Source: Escherichia coli
Lineage (GTDB): Bacteria; Pseudomonadota; Gammaproteobacteria; Enterobacterales; Enterobacteriaceae
NCBI RefSeq assembly: GCF_009931435.1
Contig: NZ_CP043414.1
Direction: 5' to 3' (one strand)
Length of the DNA stretch: 64,000 nt
Each line of letters opens with the position of its first letter. Position 1 is the stretch's first letter. The translations under genes were made by a program, and so were the position numbers. The notes beneath the pieces are model-generated. The model made no database searches. It was not told the DNA's origin and saw only the letters and a list, made by a program, of their open reading frames with translations. Below, one piece after another: positions 44,150 to 47,204 of this stretch.

Positions 44150-44527
44150 TTAATCCATCAAGCCGCGTGAAGTCTTACTTGCAGTATGACGAAAATCATA
44201 ACGTTCCACAACATCACCCTTAAACCAGATATCCAGTGATTTAATATGTGCTGTGCTGCTATTGGTCAACAGAGCAAGGCCCGGTATGTAGTTAGATAGC
44301 TGGCTTTCTCCCGTCATACTTGAGTAGTTCCACATCTCCTGTCCATCATTCGTAGCGCGTGTCTGAGGCTCTCCAAAGGCAGCAAGAATTTCTTGTTGGG
44401 TTGTTTTTCCATTGACGATTTTAACTTTAACCGTCTGATGATTTTCATCAGTTAGGGATTTATTACCATGAACGGTACAGCCACTAAGTGGTAATATGAT
44501 AAAAATAGCAAATAACAATTTTTTCAT
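44150..44527 (-). CDS. Lipoprotein, BamE/OmlA-like pattern
   Basis: ORF 44150..44569; start at MKKLLFAIFIILPLSGC (lipobox); G.T.QQ...G.P pattern resembling SmpA/OmlA fold. Confidence 0.55.
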   Translation of the reverse strand: MKKLLFAIFIILPLSGCTVHGNKSLTDENHQTVKVKIVNGKTTQQEILAAFGEPQTRATNDGQEMWNYSSMTGESQLSNYIPGLALLTNSSTAHIKSLDIWFKGDVVERYDFRHTASKTSRGLMD

Positions 44528-44558
44528 TTTAGTTCCATAAATAGATGATAGATGAGAC

Positions 44559-45047
44559 TCAGAAAACATACTTTTTGAATACCAGCATCCATCGCTCGCA
44601 AAGTTCGTGATTTGAAGTGCTTTTATTTTTTAGGGGAACATTAACTTTCCACATGGGATTTTTAATATCATCGGTTAAAATATTGAGGCCAGACCGTTTA
44701 TTCGCTGAAAGTTGTTCTCTCCAGTTAGCAATAGCCGCATTATTCATACCTCGTAATGTTCCATTGCCGTAAAACTTACCACCCTCTGAAAGCGTGTAAT
44801 TTATTTCCCGGATTTCATCAAAAGTATATGTGCTGTCTTTATCTTTATTGAAAATACGGACAGTATGTTTTTGAGTATCAATTACAATACCTGTCTGCTG
44901 GCATTCATAAGAAAGAATGTCGCCGTCCAGAACTTCCGTAAAGCTGTTGTAGTGCTTTTTCTTCTGTATATCTGCTGCGGTCATGATAATGACGAAGAGC
45001 ACCACTAAAAATACGATACCTGTTGCTTCCACTCTTACTTCCTCCAT
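44559..45047 (-). CDS. Hypothetical membrane-anchored protein
   Basis: 162 aa with N-terminal TM helix IVFLVVLFVIIM; upstream of the lipoprotein on same strand. Confidence 0.5.
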   Translation of the reverse strand: MEEVRVEATGIVFLVVLFVIIMTAADIQKKKHYNSFTEVLDGDILSYECQQTGIVIDTQKHTVRIFNKDKDSTYTFDEIREINYTLSEGGKFYGNGTLRGMNNAAIANWREQLSANKRSGLNILTDDIKNPMWKVNVPLKNKSTSNHELCERWMLVFKKYVF

Positions 45048-45464
45048 GTAAATGAGTTAAAGAGACTGAACCCGCTCACAGAGCTTTGCTTCGTTTTATA
45101 CGTGCTACAGCACCAAACTCATGGCGTCGGTCTCGGCGTTGCAAGGCTATCAGAACTTGAAATTATGATCGATATAAAAGATCGATAATTTGTTATTGAT
45201 AGATAATAACGATTGAAAGCGCGATATCGATCGGTGCTTAATTGTTATTATCGATCGAATATCTATTTATGATAGTTGTAAGCTATCGTGCGGTCGTTTT
45301 TGATCGTTTTAAACGATATGACGAGACGCTAAAAGAATTGAATCCTATCAATTGGTTAAGCGGTGGTTTTGCCATGTGATATCAGCCGGATCCCGCAACA
45401 ACTCTAGCCCTGACCGGATTAGGTCAAAAATTTAGGCACTTTGATTATCAGGATGGATAAGCAG

Positions 45465-45995
45465 ATGAAGAAGATTTTACTCGTTGCTGGCGCAGCTCTG
45501 GCACTGGCGGGATGTGGTGAGAAAGGTGAGTTTGAGAAAGCGATTAATGCCAAGATTGGGCAAGACAAATACTGCTTCTCGCTGGATAACAATAACACCA
45601 GCTTCCCTATCCGTCTTGCCAAGCCACTACTTGATTCGACTGGCACAGGGACGAATTCAGTGATCCTCGATGGTTTTATTGAGCAGGGCCTGATGGTTTT
45701 TGAGCAGGGTTATGATTCGAATGTATTAGGGATAACAGAGGAAGGCAAAAAAGCCAAAGTCTGGAGCACAACAGACGGTGCCTGTGTTGGTCGTCGTGCT
45801 GTTGACGATATTAAGGAATGGACTGAGCCGGGCAACGGTAATCAGAAAGTCGTTCGCGTGTCTTATACGTGGAAGCTGGTTGACGTTCCGGGCTGGATTG
45901 ACAAAAAAGCGTTCGCCAACGTCAAAGGAATGAATGAACCTGCTGATGGTGCAATAAATCTCGTTAAAACCAGTAATGGCTGGAGAGCTAACTAA
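45465..45995 (+). CDS. Lipoprotein
   Basis: ORF 45441..45995; start at MKKILLVAGAALALAGC (signal peptide plus lipobox). Confidence 0.6.
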   Translation: MKKILLVAGAALALAGCGEKGEFEKAINAKIGQDKYCFSLDNNNTSFPIRLAKPLLDSTGTGTNSVILDGFIEQGLMVFEQGYDSNVLGITEEGKKAKVWSTTDGACVGRRAVDDIKEWTEPGNGNQKVVRVSYTWKLVDVPGWIDKKAFANVKGMNEPADGAINLVKTSNGWRAN

Positions 45996-46087
45996 AAGGA
46001 TGCTGGATCGTTAAATGCCCCTGCTACGCTGTGGAAAGTGACAGAAGGGGCATGAATTGTATTTCATTTAATGTAGTGAATGATATT

Positions 46088-46663
46088 TTATTGTATCGAT
46101 TTGTTAGATACTTTCATCAATTTCTCTTGAATTTTTCTTATTCTTTCAAGTTCTTCAACAATGGGATTTTTCTCGCCTTCACTTTGCATGAAAGGGCTTA
46201 AGTCTATATTGTTTTTTTCAACAACTTCTTTATTCATATAACTGTACGTTGCGGTTATTGTAAATTGTTGTGGTAACGGATTTTTCGATTCTCCAAAAAT
46301 AACCCAACCTTGACCAAGGGCGAAGAATAACTCTTGATTGGGCGCTAAGCTATCAATAGTCGATGTAAAAATACTTGTTTCTTTTAGGTTTTTAGTTGGC
46401 TCATCGAACTGATAAAAATCCTTATCTAATTCTAATTTTACATTCAGGGCTGGTGTCTTACCGCTATTATAAATTTTCAGGTATAGGAATTGCGAGTGAG
46501 GTCTTACCATTGGCTGGATTATTATATAAGGACGAGACATTGCCTCGGTTTGCTCATTCATTATCTGAGCTGTTCGTTCGCTTATTCTCGACATCTTGTA
46601 TGTCAAAAATGCATAAATTCCTGTAATGATAACAAGAATTGCTGTAAGTATTTCCATTGTCAT
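46088..46663 (-). CDS. Hypothetical membrane protein
   Basis: 191 aa with N-terminal TM helix; 46 bp downstream of the preceding minus-strand gene. Confidence 0.5.
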   Translation of the reverse strand: MTMEILTAILVIITGIYAFLTYKMSRISERTAQIMNEQTEAMSRPYIIIQPMVRPHSQFLYLKIYNSGKTPALNVKLELDKDFYQFDEPTKNLKETSIFTSTIDSLAPNQELFFALGQGWVIFGESKNPLPQQFTITATYSYMNKEVVEKNNIDLSPFMQSEGEKNPIVEELERIRKIQEKLMKVSNKSIQ

Positions 46664-46709
46664 GATTAACTCCTAAGTATAATGATTCATACCAGTAAGG
46701 TATAATATT

Positions 46710-47204
46710 TTAACTATTATTGCATTTTTTTCTGTTGAATAGTTGATTATATCCAAGTTCCATTTCTTCAATAAAATCTTCATTAAATGTTGGAAATCCA
46801 CACGCCAGTGGTTCTTTCCCTCGAATTTTGAATAAGTTATAAAGATAACTACTTTCTTTATATGCGACATGAATGGCAGGATATGGCCTATTTTTTATAA
46901 TCTTATTGTTTAGTTCCTTATCATTGATAATGTTATATTGATCCCCCGTTATATCAACTACAATATTATCTATCTCAAGCCAGTAATGGGTTATTTGACT
47001 ATTTTTTCCGGTAGTTGCGCTAACTCCTTTTAGCTCACATTCAGGCCATAGGGTCAGAAAATGGTAAGAAAGAAGCATTGAGGTAAGCTTACAACTCATA
47101 ACAGGAAAACAGTCTATAACAAGACTGGTGTTCTTTTTATCACAACTTTCAATTAATCTACGAAGCTTAACTGCTTCTTCTTTTATTTCGATAATGGTTG
47201 GCAA
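46710..47204 (-). CDS. Hypothetical protein
   Basis: 164 aa ORF 78 bp downstream of relaxase gene, same strand. Confidence 0.5.
   Translation of the reverse strand: MPTIIEIKEEAVKLRRLIESCDKKNTSLVIDCFPVMSCKLTSMLLSYHFLTLWPECELKGVSATTGKNSQITHYWLEIDNIVVDITGDQYNIINDKELNNKIIKNRPYPAIHVAYKESSYLYNLFKIRGKEPLACGFPTFNEDFIEEMELGYNQLFNRKKCNNS

Follow-up and report, generated by a model that had tools for sequence, protein, structure and literature searches.

ROD21 and the ROD21-like (EARL) islands of Enterobacteriaceae have been described in detail (PMC3198454, PMC6035254, PMC3976249). Such islands are present in ~12-15% of complete Escherichia coli genomes and are also found in Salmonella, Klebsiella and plant pathogens, and most of their genes have no known role. 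Precedents for small envelope proteins on mobile elements come from exclusion systems: TraT/TraS of F and Sfx/EexC of IncC each combine an outer-membrane lipoprotein with an inner-membrane protein encoded together with it near transfer genes, and Cor (phi80, N15, HK022) and Llp (T5) are small outer-membrane lipoproteins with which phages mask the receptor and so exclude superinfecting phage. The cor and llp genes adjoin tail or receptor-binding genes. Outer-membrane exclusion lipoproteins, for example Sfx, are also known on mobilizable islands (PMC11493245). Here we analysed a block of five genes (positions 44150-47204) in a 64-kb stretch of E. coli DNA (contig NZ_CP043414.1; 64,000 nucleotides, hereafter the window), where the block lies between the gene for a 305-amino-acid (aa) protein and a relaxase gene on a ROD21-like island. 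We find that the part of the block tied to the relaxase is a pair of genes for a DUF4755 protein and a predicted BamE-fold lipoprotein, rather than the genes that stand directly behind the relaxase.

The window was assigned to E. coli because the flank at 57400-61400, with smpB, ratA, bamE and recN inside it, is 99.4% identical to E. coli chromosomes. The block lies within a mobilizable ROD21-like (EARL-like) island that is integrated at ssrA: the tmRNA gene (ssrA, 57019-57381) abuts the island and, with the integrase gene (55625-56854), marks its right end, while the left border is only approximate (~37.6-38.4 kb) because no copy of the ssrA 3' end was found at ≤3 mismatches as a left attachment site (att). 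Gene order on the island runs pilV, pilS, a traD-like gene, the relaxase gene, the SEN1982-type lipoprotein gene, DUF4755 (SEN1983) and the SEN1984-type lipoprotein gene, followed by a variable gene and homologues of SEN1986-1988, which matches the ROD21 gene table (SEN1976-SEN1988). The relaxase (47283-48764, minus strand; RefSeq mobQ; NF041496, E 2e-74) belongs to the MobQ family and is the homologue of SEN1980 (PMC3976249). E. coli ROD21-like loci were syntenic with the island by tblastn at 82-100% identity. The gene set and order of EARL islands (pilV, pilS, traD-like, mobA, SEN1982-1984, SEN1986-1988) are thus present here, and the RefSeq names of both lipoproteins are taken from SEN1982 and SEN1984.

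The island differs from its described relatives in three respects. EARL islands share a conserved excision/integration module, with related integrases and recombination directionality factor, and are inserted at tRNA-Asn, whereas the present island sits at ssrA. Its integrase is divergent, with only 31-32% identity to its counterparts in E. coli ROD21-like islands but 83% to the one in another E. coli island (L050), which adjoins the same autotransporter gene. Behind the relaxase, ROD21 carries SEN1981/SEN1981A where the present island has genes for a 164-aa protein and a DUF8453 protein in the same slot. Lastly, the integrase-side end of the present island holds a Lamassu defence system, unlike that of ROD21-like islands.

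From left to right, the block encodes a 125-aa outer-membrane lipoprotein with a predicted BamE-like fold (44150-44527, minus strand), a DUF4755 protein homologous to SEN1983 (44559-45047, minus strand), a 176-aa lipoprotein (45465-45995, plus strand), a 191-aa DUF8453 protein (46088-46663, minus strand) and the 164-aa cytoplasmic protein (46710-47204, minus strand; TTG start, GGGAG upstream). RefSeq names the E. coli homologues of the first four SEN1984 family lipoprotein, DUF4755, SEN1982 family lipoprotein and DUF8453 domain-containing protein, respectively, although the "SEN1982/SEN1984 family" names were not found in the NCBIfam copy that we searched. Start codons were revised from the RefSeq gene lengths of E. 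coli homologues, such that M15 is the most likely start of the 139-aa open reading frame (ORF) that yields the 125-aa protein, the 184-aa ORF starts at 45465 to give 176 aa, and a GTG at 45032 with GGAGGAAG just upstream is the probable start of DUF4755 (157 aa). Since each of the five ORFs falls in a conserved family, and the ratio of nonsynonymous to synonymous substitution rates (dN/dS) in pairwise comparisons with homologues is 0.04-0.30, the sequences indicate that these are real genes under purifying selection and not chance ORFs.

The initial annotation had described two lipoproteins, two single-pass membrane proteins and a 164-aa cytoplasmic protein between a nuclease-like (305-aa) gene and the relaxase, and all five ORFs were found there, with their predicted types borne out by lipoboxes and hydropathy. 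The BamE-like protein has the lipobox MKKLLFAIFIILPLSG before the cysteine, with Thr at +2 (LSGC), and the SEN1982-family protein has MKKILLVAGAALALAG before the cysteine, with Gly at +2 (LAGC). Both match Pfam LPAM_1 (E 7.5e-4 and 1.8e-4, respectively), and the lipobox cysteine is invariant in both families. Because neither lipoprotein has Asp at +2, outer-membrane (Lol) sorting is expected for both. The two membrane proteins each have one N-terminal hydrophobic segment (Kyte-Doolittle 19-residue means of 2.5 and 2.1), and no such segment was detected in the 164-aa protein by the same measure. In DUF4755 homologues the helix is followed by a cluster of lysines and arginines (KKK in 42 of 43), and K/R follows the helix in 114 of 116 DUF8453 homologues, which predicts cytoplasmic rather than surface-exposed C-terminal domains for both single-pass families. 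The description of the five as surface-exposed small proteins is accordingly wrong for three of them, namely these two and the cytoplasmic 164-aa protein.

Judged from strand and predicted RNA structure, the block is three adjacent transcription units and not one system, since hairpins lie at both convergent junctions and the genes are on differing strands; we hold this three-unit island architecture with high confidence. The first unit (minus strand) is headed by the relaxase gene and continues with the 164-aa and DUF8453 genes, which are separated by gaps of 78 and 46 bp without a terminator-like hairpin in either; the second (plus strand) is the SEN1982-type lipoprotein gene alone; and the third (minus strand) is DUF4755 followed after 31 bp by the BamE-like lipoprotein gene. 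Between the convergent 305-aa and BamE-like lipoprotein genes, a hairpin with a 14-bp stem (44092-44132; -19.5 and -18.4 kcal/mol on the two strands; z = -5.6 and -5.7, with 0 of 200 shuffles folding as well) is likely a bidirectional terminator that ends the DUF4755-lipoprotein unit. The hairpin between the convergent SEN1982-family and DUF8453 genes (46015-46053; -25.9 and -17 kcal/mol; z = -2.6 and -2.4) is likely a terminator common to both. Because the gaps in the first unit are short, no hairpin intervenes and the 46015-46053 hairpin follows the 191-aa gene, it is plausible that the 164-aa and 191-aa genes are co-transcribed with the relaxase gene, as had been proposed for two genes of the block.

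The distribution of the block among genomes divides it further. Some part of it was matched in 647 of 5426 complete E. coli genomes, and since only 58 of these 647 hold all of it, the block is a mosaic and not a single unit. The common subsets in E. coli are the left trio (44150-45995), the SEN1982-type gene alone and the left pair, and the breakpoints, near 45165, 45574 and 45995 of the window, coincide with borders of genes. Relatives in Dickeya, Yersinia and Pluralibacter carry other subsets of the five genes.

The DUF4755 protein matches PF15947 (E 5.2e-14, residues 44-158), as do most of its homologues in precomputed matches, and its gene has the lowest dN/dS of the block (0.04). Outside the ROD21-like islands we examined four further DUF4755 lineages, in each of which the gene lies 0.4-3 kb downstream of a MobA_MobL relaxase gene on the same strand (E. 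coli L050-52; Salmonella L058-59 and L062-63; Yersinia L060-61); one more locus, L053, is cut by a contig end. A 125-aa gene directly follows DUF4755 in L050-52, L058-59 and L060-61. In the three loci compared (L050, L058 and L060, of which L051, L052, L059 and L061 are near-duplicates), the encoded protein shares 70-73% identity with the lipoprotein of the window. The L050 relaxase, by comparison, is only 39% identical to the window relaxase. The order relaxase, variable slot, DUF4755, lipoprotein is kept across these divergent islands, and in the window the slot is filled by the 164-aa, DUF8453 and SEN1982-type genes. Because this order recurs across the DUF4755 lineages, we regard DUF4755 and the BamE-like lipoprotein as the pair that is tied to the relaxase. 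ORF58 of Klebsiella phage RAH1 (157 aa), which lies just upstream of that phage's lipoprotein gene, was considered as a hidden DUF4755 and discarded when it showed no similarity. Beside the relaxase/DUF4755/lipoprotein module of one Salmonella/E. coli mobilizable island (L058, 8934-11725) lie flagellin, flagellin-repressor and resolvase/invertase genes, a set that resembles a flagellar phase-variation locus on a mobile element.

The BamE/OmlA-like pattern that the initial annotation saw in the 125-aa lipoprotein is weak at the sequence level: the match to Pfam BamE (PF04355) is below threshold (independent E-value 0.059; residues 50-117 of the 139-aa ORF), and only a 12-residue motif aligns with host E. 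coli BamE. A published Phyre2 model of SEN1984 nevertheless agrees with it, matching BamE with 99.7% confidence (PMC10655114). A lipobox, similar size and the pattern G-x-T-x-x-E/Q-V/I-x-x-x-G-x-P are further likenesses to BamE (SmpA/OmlA), as is the naming of plasmid homologues by the Prokaryotic Genome Annotation Pipeline (PGAP), whereas the island family differs from BamE in that it travels on mobile elements. The host's own bamE lies at 59032-59370, 2 kb to the right of the island, and is distinct from the island gene, which is therefore not the housekeeping gene; likewise, homology to housekeeping envelope proteins was not found beyond this short motif shared with the host bamE product. 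The lipoprotein gene has a dN/dS of 0.12-0.17, and its family alignment spans islands, phages and plasmids.

The phage and plasmid relatives place this family in informative settings. The lipoprotein matches phrog_3135 (E 8e-33), and a scan of viral contigs returned 122 relatives; of the 80 that were kept, 73 are phage-type loci with 33-41% identity. In ~37 of these 73 the lipoprotein gene lies between major tail/chaperone genes and the tape measure gene, with variable companions such as an antirepressor, and in ~9 it lies downstream of cI. Salmonella phage S107, for example, has the order cI, orf59, orf58, lipoprotein, N, a location that corresponds to that of rexAB in the lambda map. The family thus occupies lysogeny-expressed or tail-linked accessory positions in temperate phages, which are typical of prophage-expressed accessory, lysogenic-conversion or exclusion genes. 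Relatives are also carried by 135 plasmids, 100 of them conjugative and most of them Burkholderia conjugative plasmids, where the homologue is named bamE by PGAP and lies a few genes after traG on plasmids with F-type mating-pair genes. The finding that one lipoprotein family is common to temperate phages, in prophage-type accessory positions, and to conjugative plasmids makes the idea of an exclusion function testable.

We propose that the backbone of the module is an inner-membrane-anchored DUF4755 protein followed by the 125-aa predicted BamE-fold lipoprotein. The lipoprotein would be sorted to the outer membrane, where it may bind or mask an envelope component and thereby exclude superinfecting phage, conjugative DNA arriving from a donor, or both, as Cor, Llp or TraT do; DUF4755 would be a dispensable inner-membrane partner. 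The periplasmic SEN1982-family lipoprotein probably binds or inhibits a periplasmic partner, and the DUF8453 and 164-aa proteins would more likely serve in mobile element-phage conflict (defence or anti-defence) than in conjugation. We hold this account as a whole, which blends architecture and mechanism, to be the best available explanation, at a confidence that falls just short of even; its component of exclusion or receptor masking by the BamE-like lipoprotein, which is drawn by analogy, is more tentative still and would sooner fail than stand. The exclusion, receptor-masking or superinfection-immunity role proposed for the block is plausible only for the BamE-like lipoprotein, which is found in phage immunity and tail positions and is tied to the relaxase, with DUF4755 as a possible participant; for the five genes taken together it finds no support. 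If none of these functions holds, the block would be ordinary island cargo.

Cor/Llp, TraT/TraS and Sfx are the closest functional precedents for the pair, and we treat them as analogies rather than memberships. The 125-aa protein is predicted to resemble Cor and Llp as a small outer-membrane lipoprotein of a mobile element, and the genes for its phage homologues, like cor and llp, adjoin tail genes or else lie in the lysogeny-expressed immunity region, but it has no sequence similarity to them and its predicted fold is BamE-like; in a profile search of PDB sequences, its overlap with T5 Llp (PDB 8a60) was confined to the signal peptide (E 0.23). The pair likewise resembles TraT/TraS and Sfx/EexC in combining an outer-membrane lipoprotein with an inner-membrane protein, but no homology was found and the present island encodes no mating-pore target. 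Sfx is also larger (~286 aa, PMC11493245) than the island lipoproteins (125 and 176 aa). The gene families of the block had already been named, and the ROD21 literature discusses two of them; the module architecture, the lipoprotein common to phages and plasmids, the fold assignments and a GATC cluster described below are new.

Several observations weigh against the proposed role. None of the five proteins has a sequence match to known exclusion, superinfection-exclusion or defence families: Pfam-A and NCBIfam scans gave no match to the TraT, TraS, TrbK, MbeD/Exc or Sfx families (Sfx was not compared directly), NCBIfam yielded nothing informative for any of the five, and PADLOC-DB 2.0 defence models gave none better than E 0.006 in a search that detects LmuA and LmuB of the island. 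ROD21 has DUF4755 only as a pseudogene, an IS3 element splits it in one E. coli strain, databases represent it by many partial proteins, and Dickeya-type islands that have the lipoprotein lack it; since DUF4755 is so often degraded or lost, the pair may not act together. Its two conserved cysteines (Cys49 and Cys150) could mean a periplasmic domain, in conflict with the charge-based topology. Because deletion of the ROD21 relaxase left transfer unchanged (PMC3976249), the genes may stay near the relaxase through common inheritance and not because they work with it. Finally, the only published phenotype in the gene set belongs to another of its members and is related to virulence: transposon mutants of SEN1982 are reported to be impaired in colonising mouse organs (cited in PMC10655114 and PMC6968874).

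In one alternative, DUF4755 and the BamE-like lipoprotein act jointly in conjugative exclusion (inner-membrane entry exclusion plus outer-membrane surface exclusion, like TraS/TraT or EexC/Sfx), by which a cell that already has the island or a helper plasmid refuses a further copy. The combination of inner- and outer-membrane proteins fits, the linkage to MobA/MobL relaxases on the same strand extends to at least five island lineages, helper-matched Sfx lipoproteins exist on mobilizable islands (PMC11493245), and on Burkholderia plasmids the homologous gene comes after traG, as described above. However, Pfam scans showed no homology to TraT, TraS, TrbK or MbeD, the islands encode no mating-pore proteins that exclusion could target, DUF4755 is frequently a pseudogene or absent, and members of the lipoprotein family are frequent in temperate phages, elements that lack genes for conjugation. 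We consider a dedicated conjugative exclusion pair unlikely.

The lipoproteins could instead be host-interaction or fitness factors that change the envelope during infection, comparable to lambda Bor, Iss or TraT in serum resistance. SEN1982 was recovered when transposon mutants were screened for colonisation of mouse liver and spleen, it is transcribed and it responds to the excision state of ROD21 (PMC6968874, PMC10655114), and the island family is enriched in pathogens (PMC6035254). On the other hand, SEN1982-like proteins reach environmental Acidobacteria and Cyanobacteria, the BamE-like family is found on Acetobacter and Burkholderia plasmids and in a marine Alteromonas phage, its phage copies are located in immunity and tail modules, and Pfam scans gave no Bor/Iss family match, making a fitness role about as improbable in our judgement as the conjugative pair.

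A broader reading than the one we propose is that the SEN1984-type BamE-fold lipoprotein defines an envelope exclusion class, so far unrecognised, that is common to islands, conjugative plasmids and temperate phages. Its members would possibly engage the β-barrel assembly machinery (BAM) complex or another outer-membrane protein and thereby block phage adsorption, DNA entry or contact-dependent toxins, and in islands the conserved GATC cluster might switch their expression, as in Dam-dependent phase variation. We regard this generalisation as speculative and would give it little more than an outside chance.

The remaining two alternatives fare worse. A single relaxase-associated accessory operon of all five genes, providing a donor envelope structure for mobilization (a mating-pair accessory), would suit the nearness of the genes to the relaxase, TraD-like gene and pilS/pilV and the short gaps downstream of the relaxase; it is largely refuted by the gene distribution, since the genes form a presence/absence mosaic in E. 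coli and other genera and four of the five families are found without a relaxase nearby, and it also conflicts with the use of both strands and the terminator-like hairpins between units, so that we rate it very improbable. A two-component spanin-like lysis pair such as Rz/Rz1 would be matched by the adjacent same-strand genes for an N-terminal-helix protein and then an outer-membrane lipoprotein, yet no holin or endolysin gene lies nearby, the phage homologues stand in immunity and tail modules rather than lysis modules and without a DUF4755 partner, charge bias predicts a cytoplasmic DUF4755 domain, and the lipoprotein is a predicted globular BamE-like domain and not a short proline-rich peptide, which leaves this idea hardly credible.

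Between DUF4755 and the SEN1982-family lipoprotein gene lies a divergent control region (45048-45464) that contains the GATC cluster. Four GATCGAT-type sites fall within 90 bp (45167-45256), a density of 4 GATC per 100 bp against a window average of 0.32, which makes this the densest cluster in the 64-kb window. They overlap a promoter-like site on the minus strand (45230-45203). All of the sites are kept in two E. coli loci (L001 and L002) despite variable flanks, and they are partly kept in Acerihabitans. The cluster may serve as a switch of the divergent lipoprotein genes that is either sensitive to Dam or bound by a regulator.

The SEN1982-family lipoprotein has three cysteines that are invariant in 54 diverse homologues (the lipobox cysteine, C37 and C107), and the C37/C107 pair fits a periplasmic disulfide. 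An AlphaFold2 model with a predicted local distance difference test (pLDDT) score of 91 is closest to cystatin/NTF2-like proteins, predicting a partial cystatin/NTF2-like fold, and searches of AFDB50 placed the protein in a broad family of uncharacterised lipoproteins that spans phyla. A PadR-like DNA-binding motif has been suggested for SEN1982 (PMC10655114); we judged it unlikely, since the protein is exported as a lipoprotein, conserves a pair of cysteines and has a model closest to cystatin/NTF2-like folds. The gene is widespread on mobile elements, with relatives on ~600 plasmids. On Klebsiella IncFIB/IncHI1B plasmids the gene lies in an operon flanked by insertion sequences (IS) with a second lipoprotein and a membrane protein, and a distant relative on IncX4 plasmids comes after topB, hha and hns; in the loci examined on both plasmid types, the gene lies outside the transfer operons. 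On Klebsiella plasmids and a plasmid-borne ROD21-like island (L048 8452-10238; L049 8419-9837), a gene for a second lipoprotein of 178-188 aa precedes the SEN1982-type gene, and a small membrane-protein gene that is like ROD21 SEN1981A in size and position follows it. Both companions are absent from the window.

The two genes directly behind the relaxase are replaceable, independently mobile cargo, and both occur elsewhere without a relaxase. The 164-aa protein belongs to a family with 60-94% identity across Enterobacterales, Aeromonas and Pseudoalteromonas, in which Cys38, His73, Asp84 and Asp88 are invariant. In an AlphaFold2 model (pLDDT 80), a helix begins at C38, and H73 and D84 are placed on adjacent strands, from which a transglutaminase-like/papain-like, enzyme-like fold is predicted. 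The protein matched no Pfam transglutaminase or peptidase family, the only matches being to YunG (PF24585, E 0.0022) and Phage_YunG-like (E 0.16), and it differs from LapG, protein glutaminase, SseI and the arylamine N-acetyltransferases both in having no Pfam family match and in being much smaller. Searches of solved structures (PDB sequences) with single sequences or family profiles returned nothing significant for any of the five proteins, and the literature on DUF4755, DUF8453 and YunG in this context held nothing beyond the ROD21 papers. That the cystatin-like lipoprotein might be an inhibitor of the papain-like 164-aa protein was considered and rejected, since the two have different predicted compartments and are not co-distributed.

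Genes for the 164-aa family are found singly beside relaxases in ROD21-like islands, directly after integrases, and in type I-F CRISPR-associated Tn7-like transposons, with no fixed partner gene in 22 loci. In Pseudoalteromonas (L005/L013) and Rheinheimera (L012), homologues with 66-69% identity are encoded downstream of Cas genes of type I-F (~10001-10504). The Pseudoalteromonas locus encodes TniQ, Csy2, Csy3 and Csy4, with TnsA-like, Mu-transposase-like and NACHT/nSTAND genes nearby, and from this layout it is a type I-F CRISPR-associated Tn7-like transposon.

The DUF8453 protein has a single membrane helix at its N-terminus, followed by a domain that is predicted to be cytoplasmic, and it has no conserved cysteine. 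It matches phrog_9607 (E 1.7e-7), and homologues ~50% identical to it reach as far as Betaproteobacteria and Acidobacteria. The gene also occurs outside the island without a relaxase, in one setting alone beside an IS element. In three Vibrio neighbourhoods (L045-L047, 8001-9236), a conserved gene for a 219-aa soluble protein comes 13 bp after DUF8453, and this pair adjoins Mrr_cat or ApeA-HEPN genes or integrases. DUF8453 and the 219-aa gene may form a two-gene system there, whereas the 219-aa partner is absent from the window. Both the transglutaminase-fold protein and DUF8453 are thus widely travelling orphan genes and candidates for functions in mobile-element conflict.

Other parts of the island also vary. 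The Lamassu system (52247-55079, minus strand; LmuB, E 1.8e-224; LmuA, E 2.1e-137) lies between pilV and the integrase gene, and TIR-domain genes take its position in other ROD21-like islands. The slot between a 327-aa gene and the BamE-like lipoprotein gene differs from island to island and looks like a cargo or defence hotspot. In the window it holds the 305-aa protein gene that borders the block on the left (43172-44089, plus strand), whose product has no Pfam match and a possible D...ExK motif; elsewhere it contains SIR2 and TIR genes (E. coli WL297; L001 12887-14951), a ComEA-family gene (another E. coli strain; L002 4603-5775) or, in ROD21, an S-adenosylmethionine (SAM) methyltransferase gene. 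At 50107-52186 (plus strand) the pilus genes of the island are limited to those for a type IVb pilin (PilS/BfpA-like) and a PilV-type tip adhesin, and genes for pilus assembly are absent from it; PilS and PilV might enter the thin pilus of a helper plasmid and alter recipient recognition.

To the left of the island lie a tRNA-Met gene (29605-29680), a YpjCB-family gene (30432-31886) and a ypjA-like gene (32735-37396). A 1553-aa protein common to the window and L050 was considered as an island gene and dropped, as it is the ypjA-like autotransporter (AIDA/Ag43-type) encoded beside the YpjCB-family gene; both genes are presumably residents of the ssrA locus, as in E. coli K-12, and the tRNA-Met gene is likewise taken to be resident there and not part of the island. 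A 21-nt repeat, ATGATAAATAAATGGCGATTT, occurs in three copies that are 81-100% identical (27517-27537, 31907-31927 and 37589-37609), of which the second and third come after the ypjC-like and ypjA-like genes and the third lies near the presumed left border of the island.

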